64,000 nucleotides of DNA from an uncultured Elusimicrobia bacterium (GTDB lineage Bacteria; Elusimicrobiota; Elusimicrobia; 2-01-FULL-59-12): the NCBI GenBank assembly GCA_964441955.1, contig CAYTWA010000004.1:82681-146680 (forward strand), in the 5' to 3' direction. The number at the start of each line of letters is the position of its first letter. Position 1 is the stretch's first letter. Both the position numbers and the translations under genes were made by a program. Below the pieces are notes generated by a model, which saw nothing but the letters and a program-made list of their open reading frames with translations, ran no database searches and was not told the origin of the DNA. Of the stretch, positions 7,766 to 16,133 are shown piece by piece.

Positions 7766-10650
7766 GGGCCTATTGAACGGTAGGCACATTGCGCGGTGGC
7801 TTTGGTCGAAGGACATCTTTAAGGCCTGATCCATCTCGGGCAGAATAGGACTACGATGCTTGCCTTGCTCGATTTACGGCGTTCCCTCGCTGGCTTTCTA
7901 GCCGGCCTCTTATGTTTACCATTGTCCGTGAATGGGGCATCGTTTTTTGACCCTCTTTCTCACCCGCACATTCCTCCAATTTACAGTGAACAAGCTCTCG
8001 CCGCCGCCCTGGGTCAGTTTCTTCAGCCATTTTCAAAAAACGGAATTCGTCTCCGGCAGCAAGAAAGCGCGGCAGGAACCCATTTTGGAACACGCGCAAC
8101 GTACGCCAACGAAGCCGATTTATCGTTACCGGATGGTCAAAGAGTCACGTGGGACGAGACACATAAATTAATCACGGAGGGTCTTATCCATGACCCCTCA
8201 ACGCTCATTTTTGAATGGGCCGCTTCACAACTGGAGATCAAGCAGCCCTCGTCATTAACAGCGACGCAAACCAAGATACGGGACAAGCTCGAGCGCGCCT
8301 TAAAAGAACTCGACCTCGAACGCGATGTTCCGATTCGTATTGTCCTTTTGGACGGAAAGACTAAAACGCAACGCTTTCCAACCTTGGGCGATTCGGTGTG
8401 GGCGTTATCCAATACCGTGGACGACGCTCATTATTTGGAAGCCGGTGCTATCGGACATTCCTACCCGTCCGTTTACATGACCCGCGAGCTGCTCTGCGAC
8501 ATCGCGGACAAGACGCTCGCTGATCGGCTTCAAGAAGAAATCCGTCATGCGCTGGAGAAGGCGAATGGCGTCCGAAAGGCGGAACACTGGGAAGATGACC
8601 CGAATCGGTCAGAGCATCTCTTTACTTTAAGAGGAGACATCCAACAAGCTGAGCGGTACCGAAAGGGAATTTTGGAAGAGTTGGCTCGTCTATCCCAATC
8701 CCCTATCGTATTGTCCGACAGCGTGGAGCAGCAGATTCGCGATCTACCCTATCAAGACCTTCAGGCGATCTTCGCGCGACGCTTGAACCTACGGTTTGAG
8801 GACTATCGGCAACTCTTTTTATCGCTCTGGTCAACGAACCCGATCGCAGCGTTTGAATACCTTGGGGCCGGAGTTCTAACCGATCAAGATGTCGTTGGCT
8901 CGATTCGCGAGTTGCGAGACGTGCATGTTCCTTCCTGGATGAGAAACAACGTGCCTCCACCTATTCTCAAGGGGCGTTTCATGTTTCAATACCAACAGGC
9001 CAAATCACAGACAATCCGAATCGAGTGGGGTTATTTTCCCGATTTAAATCACTGGTTGCCTGTATCGGCTGCCACGGTCCAAAGCGATAAACTCATTACT
9101 ACGATAAATCAAATTCGCAGCGTTTTTGTCATGCGAGACGGTTCTCCGGTTTATCTAAAATATTTTCTAAGAGGCCTAACAAAAAAAGCTTGGTCCAAAT
9201 TGGCAGCCTCGGGGAACAATTACCGTATTTACGGTCAGGTATCGCCCTCGGGGACCGTTTCGCTCGTTACATCGCCGCGACCTGTGGCTGAGGGCAACAA
9301 GCAGGCAAGAGTGACTGGGGGATACATGTTCTCTCGCAACCCACTTGAACTCTATAGCGGTGAAATCGACCCTGAAGGGTTCGCCCACCGACTCGATTGG
9401 GAAGGTACGGGCGAAAGCGTGCCTTTTATGCATGCGATAAAGCGTGTCGTCAACCGGCCCGACCAAATCCTTGCGGCCGCGGTCACCCAGTGGGCCCAAC
9501 AGACGCTTGAGACTCTAACTGAAAAGCACGAGACCTTTTGGATAAGAACACGGCTACCATTAAAGGCCGTTTCGCAGCGTTCATCTATTTCCATGCAACT
9601 TGGGATCTTTAAGAGTTTTGGCATTGATTGGGGATTTCCGCTTGATATCAATGTCCATAATAAATGGGCAAATCATTCAATAGAAGTCAAAATTAAAAAT
9701 GGCTTTCCCGTTTGCATTCAGATTTTGCATTGCGATACGGGAAAAATGCTTGGTTTGTGGTTTTTTAAAATTTTAGAGGTCCGGGACCGCGAAGGAAAAG
9801 TGCTTGCCATGATAAGACCCTATAATTCCGATCTTCAGCCAGAAACGGAGGCTGTTAATATCGCCTCTAAATTGGCTCACGAACTTGGAGCTGAGGTCGT
9901 GGTAACCAATCTGGAACTTTATCGAGAACAAACACATTACAGGGCAGCGGCTTTGGGGCAGACGGCGAAGGTCGGGTTGGACCACGCCCAGTATCACAAG
10001 AAAGCCAAGGACGCAGAATTCGTTTTTGCTCCTATTCGTATAGCCAGACGTTTTGCGCTGAAGCCAATACGTCTGCGTGTCGGCCAATACAACCACCATG
10101 ACCCCCTCTCCAATAACAAAAGGGAACTGCTTGGCGTGACGGAATATCCGTTGGATTTTTCAGAACTTCCCCTTCCGTCCGATCTCATAACAAAAACTGT
10201 AAGATTTCCTGGCGCTCTATTAGATCGGTTTAGGGAAATAATGCCGGTGGGAAAAAGGATGTCGATTGTGATTAACACATTGCTTGCCCAATGGCTTGCA
10301 ACGTCACCTGGCGTGGCAATCAATAAATATGGGTCAACGCCATCGAATCAAAGGTCGACTAGTTTTAAAATTTCCCTCGCACTGCTTCGGGGGGTCGAAA
10401 ACCAAATTCAGGGCTTACCTTATTCCGTTGAAGTTATTATTCGCACGCTGGTGCAAAATTACGTTGACCAACATGGGCAATCCAATCGCGATTGCCTTAC
10501 AGCCTCCTAATCCGAACCTCGCAAGCGGCCTACGAAAATGGGGACGGTCCAAAAAAACGCTGACGTTACTTGTTTAGGACTGAGCGTCCCCATTTACTCT
10601 TGATTTATGACCCTATCGGTTCCATAATGAGGCGCAAAATGGAAACGATA
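7750..10650 (+). repeat. Segmental duplication copy 2
   Basis: See copy 1. Sequence identity is mosaic: perfect blocks alternate with diverged blocks. Confidence 0.85.
7856..10510 (+). CDS. Large paralogous protein B (884 aa), intact N-terminal signal peptide
   Basis: ATG start. Signal peptide MLALLDLRRSLAGFLAGLLCLPLSVNGA. Paralog of 3741..6329. C-terminal tandem RHH-like motifs (VRFPGALLDRFREIMPVGKRMSIVINTLLAQWL; FKISLALLRGVENQIQGLPYSVEVIIRTLVQNYV). Confidence 0.7.
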   Translation: MLALLDLRRSLAGFLAGLLCLPLSVNGASFFDPLSHPHIPPIYSEQALAAALGQFLQPFSKNGIRLRQQESAAGTHFGTRATYANEADLSLPDGQRVTWDETHKLITEGLIHDPSTLIFEWAASQLEIKQPSSLTATQTKIRDKLERALKELDLERDVPIRIVLLDGKTKTQRFPTLGDSVWALSNTVDDAHYLEAGAIGHSYPSVYMTRELLCDIADKTLADRLQEEIRHALEKANGVRKAEHWEDDPNRSEHLFTLRGDIQQAERYRKGILEELARLSQSPIVLSDSVEQQIRDLPYQDLQAIFARRLNLRFEDYRQLFLSLWSTNPIAAFEYLGAGVLTDQDVVGSIRELRDVHVPSWMRNNVPPPILKGRFMFQYQQAKSQTIRIEWGYFPDLNHWLPVSAATVQSDKLITTINQIRSVFVMRDGSPVYLKYFLRGLTKKAWSKLAASGNNYRIYGQVSPSGTVSLVTSPRPVAEGNKQARVTGGYMFSRNPLELYSGEIDPEGFAHRLDWEGTGESVPFMHAIKRVVNRPDQILAAAVTQWAQQTLETLTEKHETFWIRTRLPLKAVSQRSSISMQLGIFKSFGIDWGFPLDINVHNKWANHSIEVKIKNGFPVCIQILHCDTGKMLGLWFFKILEVRDREGKVLAMIRPYNSDLQPETEAVNIASKLAHELGAEVVVTNLELYREQTHYRAAALGQTAKVGLDHAQYHKKAKDAEFVFAPIRIARRFALKPIRLRVGQYNHHDPLSNNKRELLGVTEYPLDFSELPLPSDLITKTVRFPGALLDRFREIMPVGKRMSIVINTLLAQWLATSPGVAINKYGSTPSNQRSTSFKISLALLRGVENQIQGLPYSVEVIIRTLVQNYVDQHGQSNRDCLTAS

Positions 10651-10702: not shown

Positions 10703-11416
10703 TTAAACCGAACCAACCCCTTTAACGCCGTAGGTAGCAGCGGGGTCGCTGGGGGAGGATCCACTGCGAACGAGCTCCCCTTCTTCTAACAATTCAGCCA
10801 GCAAGCGCGTCACGCTGCGGCGGGGAAGCGTTAAGGCTTCTCGAATCGTTTTGGGGGTTGAAGGGCCGTTTTGGCGCAGATAGGCGAGCACGTTTTCTCG
10901 TTCATCTCCGGAGGCGTTCCCGCGCGCTTTTCCACCCACGCGCTTGCGGTATTGGCGCAGGGCATAGGTGCCTAAAAAGAGGGCAATCACCTGCATGGTA
11001 ATCCGGGGAAGTTCGGGCGGCATGGGAATGGTGGGATCAGCAATTCGCCAGGTGACGGCCACCGCCCATAGAAGAAACCACGAGGTGATAAACGGCCCGC
11101 CTTTGCGCAGGCGCTCCGGCCAACCCTCGGGGTCCGGGTCCGCCGGGGCAATCGTTAACCGCTTGATCTCGGGGGCCCCCGCGTAGGCGCCCAGCACAAA
11201 GAGGTACATCTCCGCTAAAGGGTCCTGCGCTTTAAAGTTGCCGCGTGTAAGGATAAAGAGCAGGTTGTAAGCCAGCAAGTAAGCCGTCATTCCAAAGGCA
11301 AAAGGGCGCATGAAGAGGCTGCCGTCCTTCGGGGAGGGGACGCTAGGTTCGTGGGCTTCTGCGGGGTGCGCCATGCGGTGGACTATAGTATTTTTTGGCT
11401 CAGTTAACTGGCTCAC
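10703..11416 (-). CDS. Membrane-tethered winged-helix (MarR/PadR-like) regulator, paralog 1
   Basis: 3-4 predicted TM helices followed by a C-terminal wHTH (LAYLRQNGPSTPKTIREALTLPRRSVTRLLAELLEEGELVR). Conserved N-terminal FMRPF and C-terminal DPAATYGVKG shared with 36745..37425. True start may be an internal Met (11374 or 11311). Confidence 0.6.
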   Translation of the reverse strand: MSQLTEPKNTIVHRMAHPAEAHEPSVPSPKDGSLFMRPFAFGMTAYLLAYNLLFILTRGNFKAQDPLAEMYLFVLGAYAGAPEIKRLTIAPADPDPEGWPERLRKGGPFITSWFLLWAVAVTWRIADPTIPMPPELPRITMQVIALFLGTYALRQYRKRVGGKARGNASGDERENVLAYLRQNGPSTPKTIREALTLPRRSVTRLLAELLEEGELVRSGSSPSDPAATYGVKGVGSV

Positions 11417-11480
11417 TTAAATATCGACGAATGATAGAAACAGTGAGCCACTATGGCCCAGCATACTATAAATAGAATTA

Positions 11481-11498
11481 TATACCCATTCGGGTATA
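11481..11498. promoter_or_regulatory. Perfect palindrome TATACCCATTCGGGTATA (putative HipB operator 1)
   Basis: Read directly from the sequence. Lies in the AT-rich region upstream of hipB. Confidence 0.5.
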
Positions 11499-11550
11499 AA
11501 TCGATTAAAATAAATAATTTAGTCGCTTAAATTAAATATTATCAATTGAA

Positions 11551-11568
11551 TATACCCAATCGGGTATA
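11551..11568. promoter_or_regulatory. Perfect palindrome TATACCCAATCGGGTATA (putative HipB operator 2, overlapping a -10-like TATATAAT 13 nt before the hipB ATG)
   Basis: Second copy 70 bp downstream of the first. This arrangement is typical of autoregulated TA promoters. Confidence 0.5.
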
Positions 11569-11580
11569 TAATGATGCCGC

Positions 11581-11790
11581 ATGAATCCCATTGCTAAATT
11601 TATCAAGGTCCAAAGAAATCTATCTCGGTTGACACAAGTCCAACTCGCCACAAAAGCGGGTGTTGGTTTGCGTTTTATCCGCGATCTAGAACAGGGCAAA
11701 GAATCACTCCGGTCAGATATCTTAAACAAACTCCTTCGCTTTTTTGGGAAACAGCTAGGGCCCGTTGATTTGCCGAGAGATGAAGAATGA
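11581..11790 (+). CDS. hipB: HipB-like XRE-family HTH antitoxin (69 aa)
   Basis: HTH QVQLATKAGVGLRFIRDLEQGK. Stop overlaps the next start (ATGA). Confidence 0.75.
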   Translation: MNPIAKFIKVQRNLSRLTQVQLATKAGVGLRFIRDLEQGKESLRSDILNKLLRFFGKQLGPVDLPRDEE

Positions 11791-12116
11791 AAGCCGGCGT
11801 GTTTTATGGCGATATTTCTGCTGGAATTCTAACGAAGCATGACGGCTCCTATACCTTCTGTTATGAAAAGGCGTATTTAGACCGTCCGGACGCCCAACCC
11901 ATCAGTTTTTCACTTCCGCTTCAAATAGAGCCCTTTGAATGGAAAGAGTTTCCACCTTTCTTCGATGGTTTACTGCCTGAGGGATGGTTGTTGGAGTTGA
12001 GTGCTTCGAAATTCAAAATCGACCCCAAAGATAAGTTTTCAATGTTGTTGGCGATGGGTCATGATGGGATTGGTGCCGTAAGCGTTCAGGCATTGGAGGG
12101 CCCGGGTGCCGGCTAA
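11787..12116 (+). CDS. hipS: HipS-like protein (HipA N-terminal subdomain as a separate 109-aa polypeptide)
   Basis: HipA_N motifs FFDGLLPEGW and GHDGIGAVSV. Overlaps the downstream kinase gene. Confidence 0.7.
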   Translation: MKAGVFYGDISAGILTKHDGSYTFCYEKAYLDRPDAQPISFSLPLQIEPFEWKEFPPFFDGLLPEGWLLELSASKFKIDPKDKFSMLLAMGHDGIGAVSVQALEGPGAG

Positions 12117-13035
12117 CTGTCTGAGCTGTCATCGTCCGATACAGGGAGAAGCCTACCATTCCGCTTGTTTAATGAACCTTTTCGGAGTCGCCCGAGCGCC
12201 GAAGGTGTCCTTTGCGATTCCCGACATCCCCATCAAACTACGAGAGCCCACAGAAAAGATTTCACCCATTTCGGGAGTGCAGATCAAAACCTTTGTGCGA
12301 CTATACCCGCAGACACTTTCGTTGGATATCGCGCCTTCAGGGGGGACACACATTTTAAAACCCGATCCGCCTCAATACCCCGAACTATCGACCCTTGAAA
12401 ATGTATGCATGGCGATGGCAGCTGAATTGGAAATGGACGTTCCGCCGCACGGGTTATTCCCCATGCCAAACGGGATGCTTTGTTACGTGGTACGTCGATT
12501 TGACCGAGAGGCCGATGGCCGAAAAATTTCAAAAGAAGACTTGGCCCAAATCATCGGGGTTCCCTCAGACTCCAAATACCGAAGCTCGCTCGAATCGATC
12601 GGAAAGGCCATCCGGAAACTGGCCACGACGCCAGGGCTTGAGGCGTTGCGTTTTTGGGAACGGGTTTTGTTTTGCTACATGATCGGCAATGGGGACATGC
12701 ATCTTAAAAATTGGTCGTTGTTGAAAACATCGGACGGGCGCGTCCAATTATCACCCTGCTACGACTTCGTTTCTTCGGAAGTTTACTTTCGTGATGAGGA
12801 ATCCGCTCTCACCTTAAACGGCAAGAAGGCTCGCTTAAAACGGCTGGATTTCGATATCCTGGCCGCCTATCTCAAGATTGACCCCAAGGCGGCCTCCAAG
12901 GTGATTCAGATGTTTGAAGCGAAACATCCTGCCCTCATCGAAATGGTTATGGGTTCGCCTTTAACGTTGGACAAGAAAGAGAAGTTACTCGAAACGATGC
13001 AAGCTCGCCTGGCTGTTTTGTCCAAATCATCGTGA
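12106..13035 (+). CDS. hipT: HipT-like Ser/Thr kinase toxin (HipA C-terminal kinase core, 309 aa)
   Basis: Gly-rich loop SPISGVQIK at residues ~53-61. Catalytic motif GNGDMHLKNWS and DFVSS. GTG start. Stop overlaps the mfd start. Confidence 0.75.
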   Translation: MPANCLSCHRPIQGEAYHSACLMNLFGVARAPKVSFAIPDIPIKLREPTEKISPISGVQIKTFVRLYPQTLSLDIAPSGGTHILKPDPPQYPELSTLENVCMAMAAELEMDVPPHGLFPMPNGMLCYVVRRFDREADGRKISKEDLAQIIGVPSDSKYRSSLESIGKAIRKLATTPGLEALRFWERVLFCYMIGNGDMHLKNWSLLKTSDGRVQLSPCYDFVSSEVYFRDEESALTLNGKKARLKRLDFDILAAYLKIDPKAASKVIQMFEAKHPALIEMVMGSPLTLDKKEKLLETMQARLAVLSKSS

Positions 13036-16000
13036 AGCTTGCGGACCTTCCGGGAGGCAGCAAAGGGTATTTTTTGGCCAATTTGGCTTTGCGCGAAACG
13101 CGGCCGCTCGTAGTAATGGCAGGTGAGGACTTGGAAGCTGAGGGCCTATCCGCGGATGTGGAAGCATGGCTTGGTCTAAAGCCCTCTGCTCAAAACCCTC
13201 AACTCATCGTGTATCCGGAGTTCGATGCGCCGGGCCGCCTGGCGGCGCTTGGGCAAATGAAACAGGCCCGGCGGTTCATCGTTTTTGCCTCCAAAGCGGC
13301 CTCGCAATTGCCCACGACATCGCCCGCCCAATTACAAACACAGACCTTAGAACTTCGTCCGGGGCAGCTTTATCCGCGCACCGCCCTATTGGAAACGCTC
13401 GCGCAGGGCGGCTTTGACCGCACCGACATCGTCCAGATGGAAGGGGAAGTGGCCATCCGCGGGGAGGTCATCGACATTTGGCCGGCGGATGCGCAGAAAC
13501 CCTGGCGGCTCGTCTTCGACGGCGATACGCTGGAAACCCTGCGCGATTTTGAGTCCGGCACGCAGCGCTCCGGCGCCTACTTGGAACCGCAGAAGCTTTT
13601 ACCGATGAAAGAAACGAAATCCGACGCGACCCTAAAAGATCACGTTCCAACGGATGCAGTGTGGTTTGAAGATGATCCGCTCGCCGCCGAGACACTGAAT
13701 CCCGGCTTACGACCTGCCGGGGTGACGATAGAGAGTACCGTCGGTTTAACCGGCAGCCTTTCGCGCGCCGCCGAAGCGGCCGGGCGCGCCAAAGCCGAAG
13801 GGAAGAAAGTGATTTTCTTTAGCCACAACGCCGGCGAAAGCGAACGCCTGCAGGAACTATTGGATGAACACATGGGCTCCCGCGGCACAGAAGGGATGAA
13901 TTTTGTGGTGGGGCCGCTGCGTTCGGGGTTCCTGACGTCGTCGCCCCTGCCCACCGGTCAGGCAGGCCCGAATGTCTCTGTCGGGGGCCCATCGATGGAT
14001 CCCCGCCTACGACCTGCGGGGAAAACGGAACAAGGAATGCTCGTCCTCACCAACGCCGAGATCTTTAACCGCGCCCGGCATCGTCCGCGGCTGCCTAAGT
14101 TTAAAGGCGGCGGAGCCATCCAAGAAGTGCATGACGTCAAGCCCGGCGACTACGTGGTGCATGAGCATTACGGCGTTGGGCGCTATAAGGGCCTAGACTT
14201 GCTTCGCGCCGCGGGCCAGGAAGCGGAATATTTAAAACTCGAGTACGCCAAGGGCGATAAGCTCTATGTCCCCTTGTTTGATTTTAAACAGGTCCAGCGT
14301 TATTCGGGGTCGGAAGGGGCGCACCCGCGCTTGTCCTCCCTAGACACCTCCGCCTGGGAGCGCGTGAAAGCGCGCGTCAAAGAAAGCGTTCAAGAGCTGG
14401 CGAAGGATTTACTAAAAGTGCATGCCGCGCGCGCGGCACTCCCCGGACACGCGTTTTCCGCCGACTCCCATTTGGAACAAGAATTTGCGGCTTCATTCCT
14501 CTATGAAGAAACGAGCGACCAGCTTCGCACGATCGAAGAAATTAAACGCGACATGATGTCCACCAAACCGATGGACCGCCTGCTGCTGGGAGACGTTGGA
14601 TACGGCAAAACCGAAGTGGCCATGCGCGCCGCCATGAAAGCGATTGCGGATTCCAAGCAAGTTGCGGTGCTTGTTCCCACCACGATCCTAGCGGAACAGC
14701 ACTTCCGCACGTTCTGTGAACGTTTCGCGGACTACCCCGCCAAAATCGGCATGCTCTCGCGTTTCCAGACCGCCAAAGAAGAAAAAGAGGTGCTCGTGGG
14801 TGCGGCGAGTGGAACACTCGACATGGTGATCGGTACGCACCGGCTGCTGCAAAAAGACGTCCACTTCCACAATTTAGGGCTTTTGGTCATCGATGAAGAA
14901 CACCGTTTCGGCGTCAAAAACAAAGAGCAAATAAAAAAAATGCGCCAACACACAGATGTGCTCACGATGACGGCCACGCCGATCCCTCGAACCCTTTCGT
15001 TTGCATTAGCCGGGATGCGAGACCTTTCCGTCATCGAAACCCCGCCCACGGGCCGATTGCCCATCACCACCCATGTGGGCCCTTACGATGACGCCGTGAT
15101 CAAAGAGGCGATCCAAAAAGAACTGGCCCGCCACGGGCAAGTGTTTTACGTGCATAACCGCGTGCAGTCGCTGCCCACCCGGCTTAAATTTCTTCAGATG
15201 CTCATGCCCGGTATTTCCGTGGGCGTCGTGCATGGCCAAATGTCCGGCCCGGCAATTGAAAAAGTGATGTGGGAATTCGTCCACCAAAAACACCAAATTC
15301 TTTTGGCCACCACCATCATTGAATCGGGCATCGACATTCCAACGGCCAATACGCTCATCGTTGATGAGGCCGAAGAGTTTGGTTTAGCGCAGCTCTATCA
15401 ACTGCGCGGCCGGGTGGGGCGTGAGCGAACCAAGGCCTATTGCTACCTCTTTTTTTCACCCGGGGTGCCGCTGTCGGGGGACGCGCGCGCGCGCCTTGAA
15501 GCGCTTCGGGAATTTACGGCCTTAGGGTCCGGTCAGCGCTTGGCCATGCGGGATATGGAAATTCGAGGAGCGGGAAATCTTTTAGGCCAACAGCAGCACG
15601 GCCATATCGCGGCGGTGGGGTTGGACCTCTACTCCCAAATGCTGCAGGATGAAATCAGCGCCTTACGAGGTGAACCCCCTGCCACGAGCGTCCGTTTCCC
15701 CAGCATGGATTTGTCGCTTCATGCCTATCTTCCGGCGGACTACCTGCCGAGCGAAGAGCTGCGAATTCTTTTCTACAAAAAACTGGTCTCTGCGGAAACT
15801 CAGCAGGCCTTGGAGACCGTCCAAAACGAGCTGAGCGACCGCTTCGGAGCGCTGCCTCCCGAAGCCCAAACCTTGATGCGCGTCTCCCGCTTACGCATCA
15901 TCGCCCGTGATTTAGGGATCGACGGTCTCGTCCAAAAACCATCTTCCTTAGAAATCCGCTTCCTGCAAAACACACCCATCCAGCCCGCCACCATCTTGGA

Positions 16001-16133
16001 GCTCGCCCACACCCGCACCGGGGTTCGCTTCAAACCAGGCCCACCCTTTACGCTAATCATCGAAAAACTCGCCTACGAATCCACCGGAACGCTGCATTAC
16101 CTCGAGTCCCTCTTCACCACCTTAACCGCCTGA
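13032..16133 (+). CDS. mfd: Transcription-repair coupling factor Mfd
   Basis: Superfamily-2 helicase motifs (GDVGYGKTEVA, DEEHRFGV, TATPIPRT, QLRGRVGR). 1033 aa. Confidence 0.95.
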   Translation: MKLADLPGGSKGYFLANLALRETRPLVVMAGEDLEAEGLSADVEAWLGLKPSAQNPQLIVYPEFDAPGRLAALGQMKQARRFIVFASKAASQLPTTSPAQLQTQTLELRPGQLYPRTALLETLAQGGFDRTDIVQMEGEVAIRGEVIDIWPADAQKPWRLVFDGDTLETLRDFESGTQRSGAYLEPQKLLPMKETKSDATLKDHVPTDAVWFEDDPLAAETLNPGLRPAGVTIESTVGLTGSLSRAAEAAGRAKAEGKKVIFFSHNAGESERLQELLDEHMGSRGTEGMNFVVGPLRSGFLTSSPLPTGQAGPNVSVGGPSMDPRLRPAGKTEQGMLVLTNAEIFNRARHRPRLPKFKGGGAIQEVHDVKPGDYVVHEHYGVGRYKGLDLLRAAGQEAEYLKLEYAKGDKLYVPLFDFKQVQRYSGSEGAHPRLSSLDTSAWERVKARVKESVQELAKDLLKVHAARAALPGHAFSADSHLEQEFAASFLYEETSDQLRTIEEIKRDMMSTKPMDRLLLGDVGYGKTEVAMRAAMKAIADSKQVAVLVPTTILAEQHFRTFCERFADYPAKIGMLSRFQTAKEEKEVLVGAASGTLDMVIGTHRLLQKDVHFHNLGLLVIDEEHRFGVKNKEQIKKMRQHTDVLTMTATPIPRTLSFALAGMRDLSVIETPPTGRLPITTHVGPYDDAVIKEAIQKELARHGQVFYVHNRVQSLPTRLKFLQMLMPGISVGVVHGQMSGPAIEKVMWEFVHQKHQILLATTIIESGIDIPTANTLIVDEAEEFGLAQLYQLRGRVGRERTKAYCYLFFSPGVPLSGDARARLEALREFTALGSGQRLAMRDMEIRGAGNLLGQQQHGHIAAVGLDLYSQMLQDEISALRGEPPATSVRFPSMDLSLHAYLPADYLPSEELRILFYKKLVSAETQQALETVQNELSDRFGALPPEAQTLMRVSRLRIIARDLGIDGLVQKPSSLEIRFLQNTPIQPATILELAHTRTGVRFKPGPPFTLIIEKLAYESTGTLHYLESLFTTLTA

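Follow-up and report, generated by a model that had tools for sequence, protein, structure and literature searches.

The tripartite operon hipB-hipS-hipT of an uncultured Elusimicrobia bacterium lies on contig CAYTWA010000004.1 (assembly GCA_964441955.1), of which we analysed a 64-kb stretch, positions 82,681 to 146,680, called the window below and numbered from its first letter. Upstream of hipB this stretch carries two near-identical 18-bp inverted repeats, and very probably both are operators of the HipB protein encoded just downstream, through which the operon would repress itself; binding is what we infer from comparison with related loci. The initial annotation had already proposed HipB as the protein that reads these repeats, and its proposal now gains support from several sides. 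The repeats are conserved upstream of hipB and enriched there, they adjoin a hipB gene in 64 of 80 stretches of DNA collected without regard to gene content, and their sequence switches together with the recognition helix of HipB.

Two inverted repeats in the hipB leader

The distal repeat, at 11481..11498, reads TATACCC-ATTC-GGGTATA (TATACCCATTCGGGTATA) and the proximal one, at 11551..11568, reads TATACCC-AATC-GGGTATA (TATACCCAATCGGGTATA). As inverted repeats they have no strand, both match the motif TATACCC-N4-GGGTATA exactly, and they lie 70 bp apart from start to start, just as first described. Each consists of 7-bp complementary arms around a 4-nt centre (ATTC in the distal, AATC in the proximal site) that is itself non-palindromic. 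The earlier wording, a perfect 18-bp palindrome, is thus loose. The proximal site can be extended to 8-bp arms (ATATACCC/GGGTATAT, 11550-11569). In both sites the centres of the half-sites TATACC and GGTATA are 12 bp apart, which makes each an inverted repeat with its half-sites about one helical turn apart.

The surrounding DNA stands out from its neighbourhood. Its G+C content is 0.32 between positions 11400 and 11599 and 0.55-0.66 in the flanks, in agreement with the AT-rich leader that the initial annotation had remarked upon. The spacer is base-for-base identical in L205, an independently assembled contig of the same organism, and is therefore not an assembly artefact.

Exact matches to the motif occur at these two sites only in the 64-kb window. 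When up to two mismatches are allowed there are three matches where 0.08 are expected, a count that none of 100 shuffles reached, and a scan with the core of 6-bp arms gave the same picture as the one with 7-bp arms. Apart from two unrelated near-matches, no further site with at most two mismatches was found in the window, and no third operator is present one period upstream (11411-11428), where the Legionella system discussed below would have one.

A chance repeat, or a dispersed element resembling repetitive extragenic palindromes or miniature inverted-repeat transposable elements and devoid of any regulatory role, would sit easily in such an AT-rich spacer, all the more as both sites are contained in a 45-nt imperfect inverted repeat (11477-11521 / 11528-11572, 71% complementary). 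The shuffles and the presence of only two copies in 64 kb argue against this origin, as do the position of the sites relative to hipB, which is kept over dozens of lineages, and the larger inverted repeat, which is not conserved in the three closely related loci L002-L004; we find it scarcely credible. The larger repeat gives the spacer the look of two mirror-image operator-promoter units, and the spacer of the window folds with -32 kcal/mol (z=-4.9). A large cruciform or long hairpin spanning both sites was considered and rejected, the same regions of L002-L004 folding as separate hairpins, and we treat the long-range fold as a probable by-product of two near-identical palindromes in AT-rich DNA.

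Conservation and covariation with the HipB recognition helix

The closest homologues of the window's HipT are 59-75% identical to it and all lie on metagenome contigs; in a HipT alignment scan with one genome per species, the nearest genomes were metagenome-assembled genomes of Elusimicrobia. Upstream of hipB, L002, L003 and L004 (HipT 59-68% identical) each have a pair of TATACC(C/T)-N4-(G/A)GGTATA sites at a distance of 81-82 bp, the proximal one ending 8-9 nt before the start codon. Across these three loci and the window this last distance is 8-12 nt. When these upstream regions are aligned, nothing but the arms of the palindromes is invariant. Among the loci, L003 and L004 are orthologous and share a downstream mfd gene (67-72% identical).

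The association with hipB is exclusive when whole loci are scanned. We picked 21 loci through their HipT, all with a HipB resembling that of the window, and counted as a site any match with at most one mismatch over the 12 core positions. The 5,055 bp immediately upstream of hipB, taken to a distance of 260 bp, contain 22 such sites and the other 103,606 bp none.

The same association emerges when the search starts from the DNA motif. A metagenome scan blind to genes asked for pairs of TATACC-N6-GGTATA sites with a spacing of 63-88 bp; at least 120 stretches came up, and 80 of them were fetched. A HipB homologue reads away from the palindrome pair in 64 of these 80. In 62 it was recognised by homology (45-66% identity), with a predicted start that is usually no more than about 120 bp away and with HipS and HipT mostly following; a HipB profile rescued the two others (L117 and L141). 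Three further stretches end at a contig edge on the relevant side, and the remaining ones are low-complexity or very AT-rich contigs, with one exception, L130, to which we return below.

The strongest argument for HipB as the binder comes, in our reading of these sequences, from covariation. HipB proteins with the recognition helix GVGLRF[IV]R[DE]LE, those of the window and of L001-L022, are accompanied by TATACC-N6-GGTATA at 15 of 22 loci and by TTACYG-N6-CRGTAA at none of the 22. With the helix GVGKTV[IV][WHY]D[IL]E the pairing is reversed: TTACYG-N6-CRGTAA is present at 11/11 loci, mostly as two or three sites about 70-72 bp apart, and TATACC-N6-GGTATA at 0/11. A third helix type, SF[ST]F, apparently goes with ATATCG...CGATAT in a small sample.

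The GKTV class includes a system whose operators have been bound in the test tube. In Legionella pneumophila three HipBST operators, O1-O3, were shown by electrophoretic mobility shift assay (Lin et al., mBio 2023, PMC10653801). O1 is TTACTGCTATAACAGTAA, O2 and O3 are variants of it, and the gaps between them are 53 bp; HipB binds alone, and neither HipS alone nor HipT alone does (PMC10653801). The authors called these the first operators to be described in a HipBST system and reported that hipBST promoters do not contain the operator motifs of HipBA (PMC10653801). The helix of Legionella HipB, VGKTVIYDIEKG, is of the GKTV type, and the window's motif can therefore be read as the counterpart, for another recognition helix, of an operator class proven by mobility shift.

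The likeness to Legionella extends to the architecture. Both operons are tripartite, in the order hipB-hipS-hipT; both have 18-nt sites with 6-nt inverted arms and a partly conserved 6-nt centre; the period is 71 bp there and 70 bp in the window; and in both the promoter-proximal operator is directly followed by TATATAAT. The differences concern the sequence, TTACTG-N6-CAGTAA as opposed to TATACC-N6-GGTATA, so that the consensus TTACYG-N6-CRGTAA does not describe the window's sites; the number of sites, three as opposed to two; the distance from the promoter-proximal operator to the start codon, 24 nt behind O1 and 12 nt in the window; and the recognition helix, GKTVIYD in Legionella and GLRFIRD in the window.

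A resemblance to the operator of the classical Escherichia coli K-12 hipBA system, consensus TATCC-N8-GGATA (as quoted in PMC3376134), had been suggested at first. This comparison does not hold, since the window differs from it in both sequence and spacing, and the Legionella HipBST operators are the better precedent (PMC10653801). What the K-12 system shares with the window is more general: AT-rich inverted repeats present in several copies in the operon's own promoter, an Xre-type HipB dimer and autorepression. Its operators have 5-bp arms, an 8-nt spacer and another sequence, there are four closely spaced sites, and HipB is also the antitoxin there, in a bipartite system. A full-text literature search for hipB together with GGTATA returned nothing relevant.

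We propose that TATACC-N6-GGTATA represents a second class of HipBST operator, read by a second type of HipB helix and built on the 18-bp geometry known from Legionella. Until now Legionella offered the only HipBST system with defined operators; the window and about 80 related loci would define the second class. The replacement of KTVx[Y/W/H] by LRFxR in the helix would provide natural specificity-swap material for the study of HipB-DNA recognition, and the motif a simple rule by which to annotate hipBST promoters in Elusimicrobiota and in further uncultured lineages. In the window, the AT-rich spacer finds an explanation and autorepression of a toxin-antitoxin operon is predicted, which is an ordinary regulatory element and no surprise.

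Across the family the motif is shorter than in the window. The 7-bp-arm form proposed at first is true of the window, and the family-wide core has only 6-bp arms, TATACC-N6-GGTATA, 18 nt arranged as 6-6-6. The perfect 7-8 bp arms of the window are, judged by the aligned sites, a special case within the family. The centre is partly conserved, with T at position 10 in 34/42 sites and C at position 11 in 22/42, and the innermost pair, positions 7 and 12, is most often C/A. Departures from the arm consensus comprise 32 broken pairs and 16 pairs of the G-T type, against 5 compensated ones.

These numbers bear on the idea that the palindromes act as hairpins in RNA or DNA, either as intrinsic terminators or as stem-loops in the 5' untranslated region that control translation. 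Each site can indeed form a hairpin of 7-8 bp (-8.7 kcal/mol, z=-2.3); a terminator scan flags 11498-11481 on the - strand, the only reading of either site that passes; and in several Elusimicrobia relatives the start-proximal copy falls in the inferred 5' untranslated region, 2-5 nt before the start codon. On the other hand, the arm sequence itself is conserved beyond what pairing demands, its deviations are almost never compensated and its inner pair is usually C/A; such uncompensated changes would fit a protein-binding site, not a stem. A terminator has no converging gene to serve here, both flanking genes reading away from the spacer, and the stems contain only 3 G-C pairs and have no consistent T-run. 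Should the proximal TATAAT described below be the promoter, + strand transcripts would contain neither site. Rfam gave no matches over the whole window. A hairpin function is, in our estimate, highly unlikely.

The number and spacing of the sites vary. Relatives have 2-4 copies at 31, 40-42, 70-73 or 80-83 bp, most of them 3-4 sites at 40-42 bp, and the 70 bp of the window come close to the 70-72 bp of Legionella-type loci. The spacings tend to fall close to multiples of about 10.3 bp, a hint that the sites are bound from one face of the helix. Strict helical phasing does not quite account for the 70 bp of the window or for the 76-77 bp seen in L019 and L020, and spacing was itself a criterion in the choice of the metagenome set.

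Overlap with a putative promoter and predicted autorepression

The proximal operator runs directly into a hexamer of the -10 type. The sequence TATATAAT occupies 11565-11572, and within it TATAAT, at 11567..11572 on the + strand, takes its first two bases from the last two of the operator. We read it from the sequence as the -10 element of a putative hipB promoter. Such an overlap was part of the initial annotation and is borne out; the 13 nt it had counted before the ATG are only approximate, the palindrome ending 12 nt before that codon, and 8 nt separate TATAAT from the ATG at 11581. A -35-like hexamer, TTGAAT, can be placed at 11546..11551 on the + strand, 15 nt ahead of the -10, as a weak assignment. 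The hexamer that follows the proximal site is TATAAT in the window, TATATT in L002, TATAAT in L003 and TATACT in L004. Those that follow the distal sites lack the final T (TATAAA, TATAAA, TATAAC and TATAGA, respectively). An acceptable -35 is present in L002 (TTGAAT-17-TATATT) and in L004 (TTAAAA-17).

In the window, L002, L003 and L004 only 4-8 nt (8 nt in the window) lie between the -10 and the start codon, and no Shine-Dalgarno sequence is present. This makes it plausible that the hipB mRNA is leaderless or nearly so. The homologous hipB start in L001 is GTG, which weakens this idea.

To explain these arrangements we propose that a HipB dimer sets one helix-turn-helix (HTH) on each of the half-sites TATACC and GGTATA. 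Since the proximal operator takes up the spacer of the putative hipB promoter and reaches into its -10, HipB bound there would exclude RNA polymerase, by which the hipBST operon would repress itself. HipT, or a HipS-HipT complex, attached to HipB may strengthen binding, by analogy with known systems. The distal operator most likely adds a second HipB dimer that would stabilise repression; alternatively or additionally, it may gate a divergent promoter. Contact, occlusion and the part played by the distal site are predictions.

Repression by HipB in a tripartite system has a functional precedent in E. coli O127:H6, where lacZ fusions showed HipB to be necessary and sufficient for repression of hipBST, and HipBST or HipBT to repress at lower expression levels (Baerentsen et al., eLife 2023, PMC10627512). 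That study defines no operator, and the window's HipT is far closer to the Legionella HipT than to that of O127:H6.

Several observations weigh against this picture. A consensus promoter scan found no + strand promoter scoring at least 9/12, and the proximal -35 of the window is poor, both in sequence (TTGAAT) and in its 15-nt spacer. The best promoter of many Elusimicrobia relatives, TTGACA-17-TATAAT/TATACT, lies around the upstream site and not around the start-proximal one, which in those loci abuts the start codon. Which site is the promoter operator differs between lineages, and for the window its assignment is uncertain. A single-sequence AlphaFold model of HipB reached a predicted local distance difference test score of 56, too poor to confirm the boundaries of the helices. 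In seven of the 22 loci with a GLRF-type HipB, no full palindrome is found even when two mismatches are allowed, and half-palindromes take its place. Finally, the Streptomyces CsoR consensus, ATATACCCCTNAGGGGTATAT, has ATACCC...GGGTAT in common with the window (PMC3902906).

The half-palindromes form a pattern of their own. In a subgroup of Elusimicrobia loci, L008-L012 and L014-L017, (A)GGCnnTATCGGGTATA is directly repeated and then inverted (TATACCCGATnnnGCC) around a TTGACA-17-TATAAT promoter upstream of hipB; the operators are arranged differently here, with no change in the type of HipB recognition helix.

The CsoR resemblance raises the question of whether the sites could be operators of a metal or persulfide sensor of that family. 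It is strengthened by L130, the exception among the stretches found without regard to genes: here the pair TATACCCATAGGGGTATA / TATACCCCTAATGGTATA (784-869) lies between two divergent genes for heavy-metal P-type ATPases and is probably a CsoR-type operator. As this look-alike sits beside metal ATPases, a HipB site cannot be recognised by its motif only. In the window, however, 4 nt separate ATACCC from GGGTAT and 5 nt in the CsoR consensus, whose G/C tracts are also longer and whose binder is a four-helix-bundle tetramer with copper-efflux genes for neighbours (PMC3902906). The neighbours in the window are hipB and a membrane protein gene with a winged helix-turn-helix (wHTH)-like domain, no copper-efflux gene being adjacent. 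A tblastn search with two CsoR queries, a weak test, gave no match in the window (best E about 1). Together with the 64 of 80 pairs that adjoin hipB, these differences make a CsoR-family sensor a very improbable owner of the sites.

The HipBST proteins and their genomic neighbourhood

By its protein families, the operon is a tripartite HipBST system and not a classical hipBA pair. The HipB-like gene of the initial annotation is there, and the operon around it has to be corrected to hipB-hipS-hipT, three open reading frames (ORFs) matching HTH_3, Couple_hipA and HipA_C. All three lie on the + strand and overlap, hipB and hipS by 4 nt (ATGA) and hipS and hipT by 11 nt, and the same gene order is found in L001-L022. 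The closest solved relatives of all three proteins are, by sequence, components of Legionella HipBST.

HipB (11581..11790) is a 69-aa protein of the Xre-type HTH class, with the recognition helix GVGLRFIRDLEQG. It matches Pfam HTH_3 with E=1e-7 and 32.3 bits (cut-off 23 bits) and TIGR03070 couple_hipB with E=3e-17 and 62 bits, under the cut-off of 71.65; its best solved relative is HipB(Lp) 8EZT (E=1.6e-6). HipS (11787..12116), 109 aa, resembles the N-subdomain 1 of HipA. It matches Pfam Couple_hipA with E=3e-27 and TIGR03071 with 101 bits against a cut-off of 27.8 bits, and HipS(Lp) 7VKB_B with E=3e-19. HipT (12106..13035), 309 aa, is a HipA-type kinase core, devoid of N-subdomain 1, that matches Pfam HipA_C with E=2e-45, HipT(Lp) 8EZR with E=4e-40 and the HipT of E. 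coli O127, 7AB3, with E=4e-18.

In HipBST systems HipS is the antitoxin and HipB a transcriptional regulator (PMC8262856, PMC10627512). Since the operon is tripartite, HipB would by this precedent be a repressor and not the antitoxin; likewise by precedent we assign toxicity to HipT and its neutralisation to HipS rather than HipB.

In HipT, D197 (in GNGDMHLKN) and D220 (in YDF) are invariant among 32 homologues, and the catalytic and Mg-binding motifs are intact; they align with GNEDMHLKN and YDL of HipT(Lp), which hold the residues mutated there as D197Q and D219Q (PMC10653801 Table S3). The Gly-rich loop departs from its relatives. S-I-S is found in 27/32 of them, and the window has S53-P54-I55-S56 (12262-12273), an S-P-I-S shared with its two closest homologues, in which a Pro, with an extra Ser before it, stands in place of the first Ser while the second is unchanged. 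This form is outside the listed S-psi-S, T[IV][TP] and SIQ groups, and in E. coli HipT an A-I-S mutant is non-toxic (PMC10627512). All of 32 homologues share C5-x2-C8 and H18-x2-C21 near the N-terminus (12118-12168, residues 5-21), perhaps a zinc knuckle. No CxxC is found at the N-terminus of Legionella HipT, as far as primer JL-P7 (MKHCPIT...) shows it.

On the other side of the spacer, a 223-aa ORF runs away from hipB on the - strand (10703-11374, with its ATG at 11374 as called in L205). It encodes a membrane protein with a wHTH-like C-terminus, and we have considered whether the palindromes are operators of this MarR-like protein, which would then regulate itself or hipBST. The two genes do have a 206-bp spacer in common, the C-terminus of the protein has weak matches to MarR_2 (E=4e-5) and MarR (E=3e-3), both under the Pfam cut-offs, and on the - strand a TATAAT follows the distal palindrome (11477..11482). 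This possible mirror-image -10, a speculative assignment, abuts the distal operator and points at the divergent gene; its equivalent is found in L002 and not in L003 or L004. Yet tblastn found no homologue of the 223-aa gene in any related locus, and the palindromes persist wherever hipB is present. The covariation of the motif with the HipB helix also argues against the 223-aa protein as the binder, and the left half of the spacer has repeats of its own, TGGCTCA(G/C)TTAA twice and an inverted GTGAGCCA, that are better candidates for its binding. We therefore give this reading very little weight.

These left-half repeats, the tandem TGGCTCAGTTAA / TGGCTCACTTAA (11396-11420) with the inverted GTGAGCCA (11444-11451), may form the control region of the divergent gene. 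Beyond it lies an 884-aa ORF (7856-10510, +). Neither ORF matched a Pfam or NCBIfam family, apart from the weak MarR-like matches of the 223-aa one, and no homologue of either turned up in the related loci examined.

Downstream, the stop codon of hipT overlaps the GTG start of a full-length mfd (13032-16133, +; junction at 13032-13035; TIGR00580, 963 bits). The hipBST-mfd junction of the window is also found in L001, L003 and L004, and mfd may thus share a transcript with the toxin-antitoxin genes and come under the HipB operators. A wider regulon can be imagined on these grounds and on that of the near mirror-image spacer, in which the operator pair is a bidirectional switch: HipB would repress both a leaderless hipBST mRNA and the divergent wHTH gene and, given the overlap of hipT and mfd, set the read-through into mfd. 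If true, a kinase module of the persistence type would thereby be tied to transcription-coupled repair; we consider such a regulon rather unlikely.

The position just upstream of mfd is variable in this lineage. The window's Mfd is 65% identical to that of an Elusimicrobia bacterium. In L206 (1924-3504; Mfd 77% identical) and L207 (1873-3504; Mfd 68%) there is no hip module, and mfd is preceded by an unrelated gene encoding about 530 aa. In L208 (2016-3441; Mfd 69%) the place is taken by a bipartite hipBA, which encodes a 79-aa HTH protein and a 397-aa HipA resembling a fusion of HipS and HipT, and this hipBA has palindromes of its own, TATTACCGATCGGTAATA and ATTCCCGATCGGGAAT.

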